This document shows positions 2,595 through 8,547 of a DNA stretch of 64,000 nt, in pieces. Made by a program: the position numbers and the translations under genes. Source of the DNA: Candidatus Altimarinota bacterium (GTDB taxonomy: Bacteria > Patescibacteriota > Gracilibacteria > CAIRYL01 > GCA-016699755). The stretch is from NCBI GenBank assembly GCA_963664295.1, contig OY760935.1, positions 480,001 to 544,000 on the forward strand, in the 5' to 3' direction. Under the pieces are notes generated by a model. It was not told the DNA's origin and ran no database searches. It worked only from the letters and a program-made list of their open reading frames with translations. Position 1 is the stretch's first letter; each line of letters starts with the position of its first letter.

Positions 2595-2635
2595 ATTTAA
2601 AAAATATTCATGCTTTGCATGAATCTTTTTTAAAT
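2595..2635 (-). terminator. Hairpin directly 3' of the tRNA-Pro CCA
   Basis: atttaaaaaatattcatgc-ttt-gcatgaatcttttttaaat, 19-bp arms with 1 mismatch. Confidence 0.6.
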
Positions 2636-2711
2636 GGTCGGGGCAGCAGGACTCGAACCTGCGACCTCACGGTCCCAAACCGCGCACTCTAGCCAACTGA
2701 GCTATGCCCCG
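2635..2711 (-). tRNA. tRNA-Pro(TGG)
   Basis: CGGGGCATAGCTCAGTTGGCTAGAGTGCGCGGTTTGGGACCGTGAGGTCGCAGGTTCGAGTCCTGCTGCCCCGACCA; full cloverleaf, loop TT-TGG-GA, encoded CCA. Confidence 0.97.
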
Positions 2712-2717
2712 ATGATG

Positions 2718-2966
2718 TTAAAAATCTTTACTGTCCTCCAAAATCTTTTTTAAAAACTCTCTGCCTTTACCTGATTTTAAAAACTTTTCTCTTTTCATTG
2801 CCTCTCCTCTGCTACTTACCTCCTCACAATATACCAATTTCCAAGGGCCTTTCCCAGTTGTCCAACGATTACTACCATTATTGTGAATATCAATGCGTCG
2901 ATCAATATCTTTTGTAATACCTTTATAAAGAATTCCTGCCTGATTTTTAATAACGTAAACGAACAT
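2718..2966 (-). CDS. Small GIY-YIG nuclease (SLX1-like/UPF0213 type), copy 1
   Basis: FVYVI...LYKGIT.D..RR...HN.G....T..KGPWKLVY.E......A..REKFLKSGKGR pattern. Confidence 0.9.
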   Translation of the reverse strand: MFVYVIKNQAGILYKGITKDIDRRIDIHNNGSNRWTTGKGPWKLVYCEEVSSRGEAMKREKFLKSGKGREFLKKILEDSKDF

Positions 2967-2974
2967 AAAAAGTA

Positions 2975-3032
2975 AACCTGCGACCTCATCCGCCTAAGGC
3001 GGACGCACTCTAGCCAACTGAGCTATGCCCCG
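2975..3032 (-). pseudogene. 5' tRNA-Pro fragment with palindrome-substituted anticodon arm
   Basis: Identical to the tRNA from its 5' end to GCAGGTT, except 13 nt of the anticodon arm are replaced by TCCGCCTTAGGCGGA (2989-3003); lacks the 3' T-stem and acceptor strand. Confidence 0.9.
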
Positions 3033-3038
3033 ATGATG

Positions 3039-3287
3039 TTAAAAATCTTTACTGTCCTCCAAAATCTTTTTTAAAAACTCTCTGCCTTTACCTGATTTTA
3101 AAAACTTTTCTCTTTTCATTGCCTCTCCTCTGCTACTTACCTCCTCACAATATACCAATTTCCAAGGGCCTTTCCCAGTTGTCCAACGATTACTACCATT
3201 ATTGTGAATATCAATGCGTCGATCAATATCTTTTGTAATACCTTTATAAAGAATTCCTGCCTGATTTTTAATAACGTAAACGAACAT
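3039..3287 (-). CDS. Small GIY-YIG nuclease, copy 2 (identical to copy 1)
   Basis: Same 82-aa translation as 2718-2966. Confidence 0.9.
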   Translation of the reverse strand: MFVYVIKNQAGILYKGITKDIDRRIDIHNNGSNRWTTGKGPWKLVYCEEVSSRGEAMKREKFLKSGKGREFLKKILEDSKDF

Positions 3288-3295
3288 AAAAAGTA

Positions 3296-3353
3296 AACCT
3301 GCGACCTCATCCGCCTAAGGCGGACGCACTCTAGCCAACTGAGCTATGCCCCG
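3296..3353 (-). pseudogene. 5' tRNA-Pro fragment with palindrome, copy 2
   Basis: Identical to 2975-3032; palindrome at 3310-3324. Confidence 0.9.
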
Positions 3354-3376
3354 ATGATGTTAAAAATCTTTACAAG

Positions 3377-3426
3377 CTCATCCACCACCTAAGGCGGACG
3401 CATTTTACCCAACCAAGCTATGCCCG
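3377..3426 (-). pseudogene. Degenerate third tRNA-Pro fragment
   Basis: ctcatccaccacctaaggcggacgcattttacccaaccaagctatgcccg aligns to the other fragments with several substitutions and indels. Confidence 0.75.
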
Positions 3427-3698: not shown

Positions 3699-4844
3699 AT
3701 GCCTGTTTTAACAAAAAAGACCCTTGGTCTTTTCGAGAGGTGGCTGGATTTTTTACTAACTGCGAATAATAATTCTGCGAATAAAGTGGTTTTAATAGAC
3801 TTTTTCTTAAAAGAATTTACCAAAAACACTAAAGAGTTTTATCGTTTTTTGTTTTATCTGGAAAATATTTTAACAAGCAAAAAACAGAGTCACATTGCGA
3901 CTAGAGATAATCTGGCAACAAAGCATATTAATATTATTTCTCCGCTTAGTGATCGTTTTAATTTTTATGAAGAAAAATGTAAGTTGGACGATATCTGTTT
4001 TAAAATTTTAGAACCTAAAAAATACAAAAAACTTTCCAGAGAGGTTTTGAGGTATAAAAAAAACTCAAAAAAAATAATTAAACAAGGTTCAAATATTTTA
4101 AACAATCTTTTGTTGAATAAAAATTATGAATTTATTCTTAGAGGTCGTTATAAAAACATTTATAGCATCTATCAAAAACTACAAAAAAAGCAAAAAAAGA
4201 AAATAAATAGTCTTAGTGATGTTTTTGCTTTTAGGATTATTCTTAAAAACAATAATCCTCAGGCTTGTTATCAAATACTCAGCCTTCTGCATGATAATTT
4301 TAATGTTTTGTCTAAAAAATTTAAGGACTACATCAATATTCCTAAAATTAATGGCTATCAAAGTATTCACACTAGCTTAAAAGACCTAATACCTAACCTT
4401 GATTTACTTATTGAAGTTCAAATCAGAAGTCAAAAAATGCATGATTTTGCTGAAAAAGGTTTGGCTGCACATTGGCTTTATAAACACCAAATAAGCCACT
4501 TTGAATTTCAAAATAAATTTTTTCCTGCCCATAGAGCTGAGGACATGGTTTACTTTTTTTCTTTTGAGGGTGATCTTTTTAAAATGGAAAAAGGTGTTAA
4601 AATTATAGACTTTGCTTATAATATACATACAAGCATAGGCAACAAGGCAAAATCTGCAATTGTAAATGGTAATATTAAAAATATTGATTATGAAATTAAA
4701 GAGGGAGATAAGGTAAAAATTCTTAAATCTAGTTTTGATAGGGTAAAAATTAAGTGGCTGGAATACACAAGTAATAAAAACACTCGCAAAAAAATAATTT
4801 ATGCTACAAAAAAATATGGAAACAACCTACAAGCAACTAATTAA
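3699..4844 (+). CDS. RelA/SpoT-family (p)ppGpp synthetase + TGS, lacking an intact HD hydrolase and C-terminal ZFD/ACT
   Basis: GRYKNIYSIYQK, DVFAFRII, KDYINIPKINGYQSIHT, EVQIRSQKMHDFAEKGLAAHWLYK; TGS IDFAYNIHTSIGNKAKSAIVNG. Confidence 0.88.
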   Translation: MPVLTKKTLGLFERWLDFLLTANNNSANKVVLIDFFLKEFTKNTKEFYRFLFYLENILTSKKQSHIATRDNLATKHINIISPLSDRFNFYEEKCKLDDICFKILEPKKYKKLSREVLRYKKNSKKIIKQGSNILNNLLLNKNYEFILRGRYKNIYSIYQKLQKKQKKKINSLSDVFAFRIILKNNNPQACYQILSLLHDNFNVLSKKFKDYINIPKINGYQSIHTSLKDLIPNLDLLIEVQIRSQKMHDFAEKGLAAHWLYKHQISHFEFQNKFFPAHRAEDMVYFFSFEGDLFKMEKGVKIIDFAYNIHTSIGNKAKSAIVNGNIKNIDYEIKEGDKVKILKSSFDRVKIKWLEYTSNKNTRKKIIYATKKYGNNLQATN

Positions 4845-6375
4845 AAATATGGGTGAAGCTGCCTGGCTTGGTAATATAAATGGAAAAACTACCTTTGCCA
4901 ATACTGCATTTTATAAATTGCTTGATATCAAAAAAGAGACTTTAAATAAAAAAAATATTTTTGATTTCTTAGAATTAAAAAATAAAGGGGTAAAATCTTG
5001 TCATGAGGCTGTTTTATTAAGAAAAAACAAACAAAAAATTCCTATTTATTTACACAATATTAAATTAGATGATGATTGGTGTATAAAAATAGCTACTGAT
5101 TTACGAAAAATAAAAAAACAAGAGTCTGTTTACAAAAAATTGATTGAAAATATGCATGAGGGCGTGTGGATGGGTGATGAAAAAAACAGAACTATTTACG
5201 CCAATCCCCGCTTCTGCTCTATGCTTGATTATTCTTTTGAAGAAATGGCTGGTAAAGACTTTTTTTCTTTTTGGGACAAAAAAAGCATTGAAAAAATTAA
5301 AAAATTAAATAAAACCAAACACAAAAAAGGCTTAAGCACTGCATGCGAAGGAATTTTGCTTTCCAAAAAAAGAGAAATGCCAGTATTTTTAAGCGCCACT
5401 CCTCTGTGTAGCGGTGGTTTTATTGGTATTATTACTGATTTAAGTGAGCTAAAAAAGAAAGAAAAAAGCGAAAAAATGCTCTCAAAAGCAATTAAATATT
5501 CAACTGATGCAATTATTGTCTTCAATGACAAAAGAAAAGTTCTTATTTGGAATAAGGGTGCAAAAACAATGCTTGGTTATAAAGAATCAGAAATAATCAA
5601 CAAAGATATAAAAACAATAATCCCCTTACAAAAGCTAAGATTAATGTTGAAAAATTGCGAAGGTCTACAGAATCTGGAAATCGAAGTAAAGCATAAAAAT
5701 GGAAACAAAATTAAAATTGCTACTACTTTTACTCCTATTTTTAACAAAAAAAACGAAAATCATGACAATGAAGATAATTATTTAATTATTGCCAGAGATA
5801 TTACTACTCAAAGAAGCCTTGAAGAAGAACTCGATATTAAACATCAAAAAATAAAAGAGGTCTATGGCGATCTTGGCAATATTAAGCGCCAAACTGACTA
5901 TATGTTTGAGCTTATTGATCTTTGTAATGAAAATCATGACAAAAAAACAATAGCTGATTTCATTGTGAGTTCTATTGCCATGTTAACCAAAATTGATGCT
6001 TGCGTTTTTAGAATTCATGAGCCTGGAAAAGGTACTCTTGAATTACTTTCTTCTTTTGGAGTTGGTGCTGATTGGGCTGGTAAATCTACCATTAAACTAA
6101 AAAACAGCCTTTTAGAAAGAGCTTACAAAAAAAACTTTCCTTTAAAAATTATTGATATTGGCAAAGAACTTCAGTATCAATCAAAACATTTGGCAAAAAA
6201 AAATAATTTATATTCTTTACTTTTAGTTCCTATTCAGTTTCAGGGTCAATTAATTGGCAGTTTGTCGCTTTATGCAAGTCCGGAGAAAAAAATTAGTATC
6301 TTTGAAAATGATTTTATTGAAAAATACAGCAAGCTCATCAATATGATTGTCTATCACATGGTTTATTTGAGCTAA
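4816..6375 (+). CDS. PAS-PAS-PAS + coiled coil + GAF sensor with no recognisable output domain (start 4801 or 4816)
   Basis: Three PAS S-boxes (LIKNMGEA..FANTAF; LIENMHEG..YANPRFCSMLDY; STDAII..WNKGAKTMLGY..ARDIT); GAF end SLLLVPIQFQGQLIGSLSLY; no H-box, GGDEF or HATPase. Confidence 0.85.
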   Translation: METTYKQLIKNMGEAAWLGNINGKTTFANTAFYKLLDIKKETLNKKNIFDFLELKNKGVKSCHEAVLLRKNKQKIPIYLHNIKLDDDWCIKIATDLRKIKKQESVYKKLIENMHEGVWMGDEKNRTIYANPRFCSMLDYSFEEMAGKDFFSFWDKKSIEKIKKLNKTKHKKGLSTACEGILLSKKREMPVFLSATPLCSGGFIGIITDLSELKKKEKSEKMLSKAIKYSTDAIIVFNDKRKVLIWNKGAKTMLGYKESEIINKDIKTIIPLQKLRLMLKNCEGLQNLEIEVKHKNGNKIKIATTFTPIFNKKNENHDNEDNYLIIARDITTQRSLEEELDIKHQKIKEVYGDLGNIKRQTDYMFELIDLCNENHDKKTIADFIVSSIAMLTKIDACVFRIHEPGKGTLELLSSFGVGADWAGKSTIKLKNSLLERAYKKNFPLKIIDIGKELQYQSKHLAKKNNLYSLLLVPIQFQGQLIGSLSLYASPEKKISIFENDFIEKYSKLINMIVYHMVYLS

Positions 6376-6376
6376 T

Positions 6377-7201
6377 TTAATGCACTGTTTGCTTTTGGGT
6401 GGCAAAAATCTCCTCAGCTATTTTAATGTGTTCCTCAAAAAGACCTGCTTCATCTGGAGTAATAACTTCTGGTTTTCCATATTGCAAATGCTTAACCGGA
6501 ACTATAAAGGCTGGATTATCACCTTGAAATAATACTTTATGATGCAAAAGAGGATGATCAAAATTAGTTATATTACCTAAAGCATTGCGCACTCCACTAA
6601 CCTGCCACCTAAATAAATCTAATATATCAGATGGTAAACGACTGTCTGCAAAATAAATAACTTGATCTAACTGATCAGGTGAAAGCAATTTAATTACCGG
6701 TAAATCTGGGTCATTTTTATCTATCTCAAGTGGTAATTCTTGCAAATTATCACGACATTCATTTGCATTTACAGCTATTGGATCTAATGCCTTTTTTTTA
6801 ATAAAACCTCTATAATAAGGGGCGTCTTCTGGTTGCTCAAAAAAATATTGCATTTTTCCGCCTGTGCCAGATTTTTCCCCTTCAAATATTTTTTTCCAAC
6901 CATGCTGAGGATGATACATTTGTCTTCCTGCTTGATATTGAGCAATGGCCATTAAAAGCCTTTTGAAATAATGAATTAACAATTGTTGATATTCTGCGTT
7001 AAATATTTCAGAAGGCACTAATTCTTCAGCTTTTTCAACTCTTTCTTTTTCTTGATAAAGTGCTTTTTTTAAACCATTTTCATTTAAAGCAGTTCTTAAC
7101 ATTGCTTCTCTTTCTTTGTCTGCCTCCTGACCTGATAAAAAACTACTTCTATGATCTTTAATGATCATTCCTGACTTTTCGCTTTTATATTCTGCGGACA
7201 T
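6377..7201 (-). CDS. Hypothetical protein
   Basis: 274-aa ORF with an upstream promoter-like element. Confidence 0.7.
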   Translation of the reverse strand: MSAEYKSEKSGMIIKDHRSSFLSGQEADKEREAMLRTALNENGLKKALYQEKERVEKAEELVPSEIFNAEYQQLLIHYFKRLLMAIAQYQAGRQMYHPQHGWKKIFEGEKSGTGGKMQYFFEQPEDAPYYRGFIKKKALDPIAVNANECRDNLQELPLEIDKNDPDLPVIKLLSPDQLDQVIYFADSRLPSDILDLFRWQVSGVRNALGNITNFDHPLLHHKVLFQGDNPAFIVPVKHLQYGKPEVITPDEAGLFEEHIKIAEEIFATQKQTVH

Positions 7202-7344: not shown

Positions 7345-8547
7345 ATGAAAAACAACCAATCTGACACCAAGATTATTGCAACAGAAACTGATGCGGAATC
7401 TGTAGCACGACAGCTTGATCAATTATCAGAAACTGACCAATCCCAAGCTTTAAAATTAATTATTACAAGTCATAAAGATCAAGTATGTTCCTTATTAGAC
7501 TCTGTACCGCAAGAAAGTCCAAAAAAAGAGCTTCCTTCTCTGCATATAAAGGACGACATTATGAATGATGAAGTTGCGAGCATGATAGAAGAATGTTTTA
7601 AAAAAGTAGGGGGCGAAGTAACAAACTTAGGGCTTGACCAATATAACAATCCATTCATAGAAGGTGAAAACCTATGGGTGCCTCAGATAACACAAGGAAG
7701 CATATCGAAAATTACTTTTGTAGAGGGATTGTTAAGAATAGAAGGAGAAGGTCTTCAGCTTGCAAGTCATTATAAAGATCTAGTTGCAGGAGGCGATATT
7801 AAAAGTGTTATGTTTGCATATAATAGAGATACATTATTTGAAGTAAGCGGGACAGAACTTGTTCTTGGTAGCAAATTTGATAAAGCAGTGAAAAATGGAA
7901 AAGTGACTAGACTAGAAAATAGTTCAAAAGAGTATGAGATAACAGGAGATAATATCGAGTTAGATGAAAGATATAAAACCTTTGTTAGAAAAGGAAATCT
8001 TAAAAGTGTTAGATTTAACAAGAGCGACGGCTTGGATTTATCAAGCATTGAAAGCATGGAAGACGATCACATCCAACTTGGAGATATGTACAAAGAACAA
8101 GTAAAAGGCGATATTCATTATGTCGGCTTTCATGAAAAGAAACATGTAATATCAATGTCTATTAATGACGAAAGTCCAACTAGACACAGTTCATATCAAG
8201 CCTTGCATCATGTAAGCGGAAGCCATCTTCTCTTAGGAAACGCTTATCAAAATTGCACAGCCAATATTCCTACTAGAGGAAATATAACCACTTTGTTCTT
8301 TGACGATGATTTGAGTCAAAATCTTACCACGGTATTCATGAAAAATTGGCAAAAGGAAGACTTTTCTGATTATGTTGTTCCCGAAGATGTTGATTCAAAT
8401 AATAGCGTTCTTATTAGGTTTGATGATGATGGAGAAGTTAACACAGTTGAAGCCCATATGCTTTCTGATAATCTAAACCCAAAAAAATTAGAACCAAAAA
8501 AACCTTCAAAAATCTCAAGGCTTTTATCTGCATTCTCCAGGTCCTAA
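7345..8547 (+). CDS. Hypothetical protein with degenerate internal repeats
   Basis: 400-aa ORF; TTGACA at 7295 upstream; recurring IxGxxLxLxxxYKxxVxxGxIxxVxF pattern. Confidence 0.7.
   Translation: MKNNQSDTKIIATETDAESVARQLDQLSETDQSQALKLIITSHKDQVCSLLDSVPQESPKKELPSLHIKDDIMNDEVASMIEECFKKVGGEVTNLGLDQYNNPFIEGENLWVPQITQGSISKITFVEGLLRIEGEGLQLASHYKDLVAGGDIKSVMFAYNRDTLFEVSGTELVLGSKFDKAVKNGKVTRLENSSKEYEITGDNIELDERYKTFVRKGNLKSVRFNKSDGLDLSSIESMEDDHIQLGDMYKEQVKGDIHYVGFHEKKHVISMSINDESPTRHSSYQALHHVSGSHLLLGNAYQNCTANIPTRGNITTLFFDDDLSQNLTTVFMKNWQKEDFSDYVVPEDVDSNNSVLIRFDDDGEVNTVEAHMLSDNLNPKKLEPKKPSKISRLLSAFSRS

Follow-up and report, generated by a model that had tools for sequence, protein, structure and literature searches.

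A truncated RelA/SpoT-type synthetase and an output-less PAS-GAF sensor form a conserved two-gene unit in Gracilibacteria

The window analysed here, a stretch of 64,000 nucleotides from the genome of a Candidatus Altimarinota bacterium (contig OY760935.1, positions 480,001 to 544,000), contains two overlapping genes on the forward strand. The first encodes a truncated RelA/SpoT homologue (RSH), here called type 1, and the second encodes an output-less sensor with PAS and GAF domains. The two genes and their parts are:

3699..4844, + strand: truncated RelA/SpoT homologue 'type 1' of 381 aa, with an HD remnant, a SYNTH domain, a TGS domain and one post-TGS helix pair.
3699..4010, + strand: family-specific N-terminal helical region (residues 1-104), what is left of the HD helical bundle and core helices, with no H-D metal motif.
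4143..4490, + strand: SYNTH domain (PF04607, E 1e-35), with R150, K152, D174, R179, D210, E239 and Q241.
4545..4727, + strand: TGS domain (PF02824), with H310 corresponding to the tRNA-CCA histidine H420 of Bacillus subtilis.
4816..6375, + strand: output-less sensor of the order PAS-PAS-PAS-coiled coil-GAF, 519 aa from the ATG at 4816, overlapping the RSH stop.
4816..5799, + strand: three PAS domains (Pfam and AlphaFold), of which PAS1 is degenerate in this copy.
5803..6372, + strand: conserved terminal module, a 42-residue helix plus GAF, with the motif Y..(L/F)G..(R/N)R; a candidate output surface.

The sensor ORF occupies 4801-6375 (+) and comprises 524 aa when counted from its first ATG (4801). 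The ATG at 4816 agrees with the starts of the homologues and is the likeliest start, giving an overlap of 29 nt with the RSH gene. The stretch is spanned with 0 differences by contigs of two runs from a single sample that may be the source; thus, the layout of the two genes is not an assembly slip. In a related seawater strain, parts of the pair are covered at low depth and show neither a stop nor an indel; within these parts, 4 synonymous and 4 changed codons were counted for the RSH, and 15 synonymous and 6 changed codons for the sensor. A promoter and terminator scan remained at chance level (18 against 19.7). Upstream of the RSH gene, at 2635-3425, a tRNA-Pro gene precedes a 321-nt tandem unit with two identical GIY-YIG ORFs (2718-2966 and 3039-3287). 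This unit is flanked by copies of the tRNA-Pro 5' half with a palindromic hairpin, and a degenerate fourth copy ends 270 nt before the RSH gene. Downstream of the sensor, the ORFs 6377-7201 (-), 274 aa, and 7345-8547 (+), 400 aa, have no Pfam or NCBIfam match.

As originally predicted, the synthetase motifs and the TGS domain of the RSH are intact. Pfam places RelA_SpoT at residues 149-264 (E 1e-35; 122 bits at a cut-off of 27) and TGS at 290-343 (E 2e-14), and gives no match for HD (PF13328), AH/RIS or ACT, while the NCBIfam long-RSH models score half their cut-off or less. Among the 119 other proteins listed of 238 matches, at least 110 relatives of 286-431 aa are devoid of HD, 108 of these with TGS, so that the matches listed contain a family of about 110 proteins with the same shape and the same boundaries. 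Their source names are Peregrinibacteria and Peribacteria, which we take to belong to the Patescibacteria class Gracilibacteria. Analysis of 115 aligned family sequences showed eleven invariant residues in the catalytic region (R150, K152, D174, R179, D210, P215, N218, Y220, H224, E239 and Q241), which argues against a decayed pseudogene. The HD motif is found in 0/115, while H310 and C190 are each kept in 114/115 and F/Y191 in 113/115; W15, N28, F50 and A73 are conserved in the N-terminal helical region. At several conserved sites the copy in the window deviates from the family, and it is devoid of a 13-residue piece of the SYNTH-TGS linker that is present in most relatives. No more than 46 residues follow the TGS domain in the 115 sequences. 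The earlier claim that the protein ends just after the post-TGS helix is correct in that ZFD and RRM are absent, but the ORF extends 15 residues beyond KWLEYTSNKNTRKKI.

The AlphaFold model of the RSH is well folded (pLDDT 91.7), and its residues 1-257 superpose on residues 71-342 of B. subtilis Rel (Z 18.3, rmsd 3.4, 243 aligned residues). Because the superposition starts at Rel residue 71, the enzyme has lost approximately 70 residues from the N-terminal end of HD and retains a helical remnant that carries no H-D, in agreement with the predicted truncation of the HD region. By alignment with 6yxa, D174 is equivalent to D264, H310 to H420, and C190-Y191 to C278-Y279 in the DarB-binding helix of Rel. 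Long RSHs rank highest in the fold comparison (Z 17-19), above small alarmone synthetases (SAS) and the toxic ones (toxSAS) among them; CapRel and FaRel2 reach Z 9-11.5. The type-1 family forms one clade with SH-aLRT values of 97-100 in quick trees that contained no toxSAS sequence; six long-branch or extra short sequences were dropped from one of these and seven from the tree used for AU tests. The SYNTH domain with its intact catalytic motifs assigns the protein to the RSH superfamily. It is not a SYNTH-only SAS, since core helices and TGS are retained, and it shares the TGS domain with the tRNA-CCA histidine with long RSHs, but has neither a full HD or pseudo-HD domain nor a full helical domain, ZFD or RRM/ACT. 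The protein is predicted from its sequence to be a (p)ppGpp-type synthetase without hydrolase or ribosome-docking parts, although its product could differ.

For the sensor, the prediction of three PAS domains and a GAF domain without kinase or cyclase was borne out. Pfam recognises three PAS stretches and, just under the cut-off, a GAF domain at 383-504 (E 3e-4), and no kinase, cyclase, EAL or HTH domain. The AlphaFold model (pLDDT 87.8) shows three PAS domains, a long helix of 42 residues and the GAF domain. PAS1 of this copy is missing a 13-residue helix, and the number of PAS repeats among the relatives varies from 2 to 5. The most conserved part is the terminal helix-GAF module, with a mean identity of 59% compared to 44% for the RSH in 27 paired sequences. 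An output Pfam family is listed for 0/36 sensor homologues. Fold and Atlas searches matched nothing beyond generic PAS and GAF domains and assigned no ligand. A search of representative sequences with the module gave 53,128 matches and was swamped by multi-GAF proteins, which shows that the GAF part by itself is generic.

A profile of the family-specific RSH N-terminus detected 16 strong type-1 matches (E below 1e-18) in 401 genomes of the class. In 15 of these 16 loci, which cover 9 families, the sensor gene lies directly downstream on the same strand, and 10/11 loci are paired once the five seed genomes are set aside. These counts include kin that are not independent and therefore overstate the statistics. 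The exception is the type-1 RSH of genome G095, where the sensor profile found no match. In contrast, only 1/160 control loci with canonical long RSHs, the sole yield of collection scans for related loci, has any match to the terminal module. For 14 of the 36 database homologues of the sensor, the length of the longest contig is identical to that given for an RSH homologue, as matched by eye. The gap between the two genes ranges from -119 to +29 nt, and the genes upstream vary, being housekeeping or unknown genes (ftsW twice, leuS, nth, pilT-like). The junction frame is offset by +1 in 11 of 17 other pairs, as in the window, by +2 in 4 and by 0 in 2, and several of the pairs with another offset are separated by a gap. 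This variation indicates two genes rather than sensor and output in one chain, and it also excludes a programmed frameshift that would join them. The neighbourhood search called for by the original prediction thus yielded the pairs, but no fusions: a weak search among 248 candidates found no longer fused form. Over 27 pairs, the distances among the RSHs are correlated with those among the sensors (rho 0.62; 0/2000 shuffles), a result that kinship alone can produce, and the nearest neighbours of both proteins agree in only 4/27 pairs. Taken together, the RSH and the PAS-GAF sensor are confirmed as a real, conserved two-gene unit. Two findings named in the original prediction as speaking against it, a lack of conservation of the pair elsewhere and decay of the RSH to a pseudogene, are contradicted by these data, and the prediction is partly supported.

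The sensor also occurs on its own. For 21 of 36 strong matches to the type-1 module, the 6-10 kb that were fetched contain no RSH, and in several of the genomes concerned the RSH genes are all of the long type or there is just one of them; this is also true for 5/5 genomes from one family outside the class. This finding indicates that the sensor has a role without the type-1 RSH. Lone output-less PAS-GAF genes are found at loci L243-L254 and L273-L281. As named by eye, those of family f27 lie between pheT-like and PBP-like genes and those of family f89, outside the class, adjoin an RNase HII-like gene, while those of family f10 are membrane-anchored.

A third gene, encoding 850-1440 aa with weak matches to SAM-methyltransferases and class-I glutamine amidotransferases, flanks 11/15 pairs in convergent orientation and is also found beside 5/21 lone sensors. 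It could be the real partner of the sensor. It occurs in 24/276 class genomes, many of them without a sensor, and was not found in the complete genome studied here, nor in G015 and G111. In the window, its usual position is occupied by the unrelated ORF 6377-7201 (-). Third-gene loci are:

L033, 9020-13333
L035, 9136-12990
L257, 186-3098
L258, 6130-9147
L261, 5773-8508
L264, 29-3037
L266, 5671-8685
L237 and L238

The host genome, a single contig of 1.2 Mb with 33.5% GC, encodes three RSH proteins: the 381-aa type-1 protein, a canonical Rel of 714 aa with HD, TGS, AH/RIS and ACT, and a TGS-less synthetase of 309 aa. It also encodes a stand-alone HD_4 protein, and a match to the HD_4 domain, irrespective of its catalytic residues, is present in 18/18 pair-bearing genomes tested. 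The 309-aa enzyme is part of a second pair:

C1:902353-905641 (L001 6354-9642; genome G000): 309-aa TGS-less synthetase overlapping an 803-aa multi-PAS-GAF gene.

The enzyme of this pair matches PF04607 only, and no output domain was found in its 803-aa partner. It represents a second RSH clade (285-315 aa, type 2, without TGS) that adjoins long PAS/GAF genes in G000, G004, G036 and G071; the same design is seen at L038, L039 and L271. In G032, a 459-aa HD-degenerate RSH is divergent to a HAMP-PAS-GAF gene. The terminal modules of the sensors of these other clades are homologous to the type-1 module and share the Y..LG..(N/R)R helix (HHalign 98.6%, 20% identity), and a second module profile gave 11 strong matches, 9 of them its own seeds, with 5 located beside a short RSH. 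A single origin of the type-1 and type-2 RSHs was not rejected by the AU test (p 0.44), and separate origins of the three short clades were unsupported (p 0.44 and 0.41). Repeated recruitment is thus not supported by these tests. Members of the third short clade are found at L043 4301-7090, L044 1175-2260 and L269 577-1278, and in G038 a third-clade RSH lies on another contig than a sensor whose helix is of the same variant. Further synthetase-only RSHs of 254-329 aa (L040 6323-7300, L282 3602-4591 and L283 4426-5190) each lie directly beside a TrmB-type-like regulator gene, as judged by eye, possibly constituting a second kind of regulator-synthetase pair.

How could the two proteins work together? 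In long Rel, activation by A-site tRNA is abolished when ZFD and RRM are removed (PMC7797070, in excerpt), which implies that the truncated enzyme needs another switch. A precedent is provided by DarB, which activates Rel off the ribosome by binding to SYNTH helix 13 around Y279 (PMC9848473, in excerpt), the surface that is also used by the RRM of long Rel (PMC9848473 and PMC13376610, both in excerpt). By analogy, we favour a model, with chances that we regard as about even, in which the PAS-GAF sensor binds and gates the truncated synthetase in response to a small-molecule or redox signal. The PAS domains would read this signal, and within a sensor dimer it would travel along the long helix to the coiled coil-GAF module. 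The module would then dock on the synthetase, most plausibly on the C190-Y191 helix of SYNTH, which would be free here, although long RSHs also conserve this C-Y/F helix, which is thus not specific to the paired enzyme. Docking would replace ribosome control of the predicted (p)ppGpp synthesis, and sensor binding would either activate or inhibit the enzyme. A TGS-helical fragment still binds uncharged (deacylated) tRNA via H420 (PMC7797070, in excerpt). Through its retained TGS histidine, the truncated enzyme may also respond to uncharged tRNA as a further input. Clearance of the alarmone would fall to the canonical Rel or to a stand-alone hydrolase encoded elsewhere in the genome, and lone sensors may act on long Rel or on another partner.

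The signal could also flow in the opposite direction, the synthetase making the alarmone, perhaps on TGS-bound uncharged tRNA, and the PAS-GAF protein acting as its receptor that relays to a third protein, such as the methyltransferase/amidotransferase-like neighbour. GAF domains bind nucleotides in other systems. The third gene beside pairs and lone sensors, the near-universal TGS histidine, the tRNA binding of the isolated TGS-helical fragment (PMC7797070, in excerpt) and the lone sensors in genomes with only a long Rel are all consistent with such a receptor. However, the third gene was found neither in this genome nor in G015 and G111, and it is present in genomes that have no sensor. In addition, with Rel in the cell a receptor would not require a synthetase of its own in the adjoining gene, and the type-2 synthetases have no TGS domain; we therefore consider this direction of flow unlikely. 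The same low probability is given to mere co-transcription of RSH and sensor in one stress or dormancy programme without any contact. Such a loose association would agree with the excess of lone over paired sensors (21/36) and with the failure of the weak search to find a fusion. It would not account for the constant order and near-overlap of the two genes in 9 families amid otherwise changing neighbours, for the recurrence of the design with a different RSH clade, or for a sensor without output of its own.

A toxin-antitoxin function was the alternative offered by the original prediction. In this reading, extended here to defence, the PAS-GAF protein would keep a constitutive toxic synthetase silent until a trigger such as phage infection lifts the block. 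For SAS operons, a conserved arrangement of two often overlapping genes points to toxicity (PMC7229694, in excerpt), the distribution is patchy (15/401 genomes), the RSH has no hydrolase domain, and loss of the C-terminal part can increase (p)ppGpp synthesis (PMC13376610, in excerpt). However, the alternative is weaker than was suggested: fold and sequence are those of long RSHs and not of CapRel or FaRel2, TGS is retained, the upstream neighbours are housekeeping or unknown genes, and the supposed antitoxin would be a protein of 420-770 aa that is mostly found without the toxin. The sole PADLOC match, PDC-S33, was discarded as evidence for defence, because it is generic and is equally given by 3/3 canonical Rel controls. 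We rate this function as less probable than either of the two preceding explanations. Finally, it is highly improbable that the locus is a decayed Rel duplicate or a fused RSH-PAS-GAF protein split by a frameshift. The deviations of this copy at conserved sites, its missing linker piece and the +1 offset common to 11/17 other junctions would fit such an origin, but the same boundaries recur in about 110 relatives among the matches listed, the catalytic residues are invariant, 6/17 junctions are offset differently and several of these leave a gap between the genes, and the covered parts of the related strain contain no stop or indel and 19 synonymous versus 10 changed codons.

If the favoured model of a sensor-gated synthetase is correct, the pair provides a direct environmental input into alarmone signalling, the output-less sensor family gains a likely target, and the wiring would show how ultra-small bacteria that depend on a host may take the decision to become dormant. 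The truncated RSH, without HD, ZFD and RRM, is in addition a natural minimal Rel for probing what those domains do. A more speculative extension, which we regard as possible but doubtful, is that Gracilibacteria-class Patescibacteria use (p)ppGpp in the way in which c-di-GMP is used by other bacteria. They would have several ribosome-free synthetases, each specific for one input and gated by its own PAS-array sensor, and the conserved coiled coil-GAF module would serve as a new kind of output domain that docks on RSHs and, where it stands alone, also tunes the canonical Rel. The host genome would then hold two cognate circuits beside its normal Rel.

Among known systems, long RSHs (B. subtilis Rel, 6yxa; E. 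coli RelA, 5iqr; the 714-aa Rel of the host) are the best sequence and fold match, sharing SYNTH, TGS and the equivalents of the catalytic D264 and the tRNA-sensing H420. In contrast to them, the truncated RSH is devoid of the HD catalytic core, most of the helical domain, ZFD and RRM, forms its own clade and has a dedicated adjoining sensor gene. RshC ends in the helical domain after TGS, like the truncated RSH, and plant Rsh4 has gained a sensory EF-hand, but both are listed as HD-positive (PMC3153485, Atkinson 2011, in excerpt), and no PAS/GAF partner is given for either of them in the accessible text of that study. The toxSAS group (FaRel, FaRel2, PhRel, PhRel2 and CapRel) likewise comprises hydrolase-less synthetases in conserved, often overlapping two-gene operons (PMC7229694, in excerpt), an arrangement that is found here in 15/16 loci. 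These enzymes are SYNTH-only, however, while the truncated RSH keeps the long-RSH core helices and TGS and fits toxSAS folds less well, and its partner is a large multi-PAS sensor that is often found alone. Gracilibacteria and Peregrinibacteria are not named in five text supplement files of PMC7229694, and literature searches, mostly of openly accessible papers, found no published description of such RSH/PAS-GAF wiring.

Known non-ribosomal control of RSHs by DarB, EIIA-Ntr, NirD and YtfK acts on the full-length protein (PMC13376610, in excerpt). For Caulobacter Rel/SpoT, a GAF domain of the PTS-Ntr system senses glutamine and sets (p)ppGpp levels (PMC6606846, in excerpt), but this control is an indirect phosphorelay ending on the RRM, which is absent from the truncated RSH, and no phosphotransfer domain is present here. 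The closest putative functional parallel is DarB, a stand-alone non-enzymatic sensor controlling B. subtilis Rel off the ribosome (8acu; PMC9848473, in excerpt), whose contact site, SYNTH helix 13, is conserved in the truncated RSH. DarB is a CBS protein that acts on the full bifunctional Rel, whereas the sensor described here contains PAS and GAF domains only and is encoded beside a dedicated truncated enzyme, to which it would bind. The pairing of a TGS-keeping, HD-less synthetase with an output-less sensor would constitute a variant form of RSH control.
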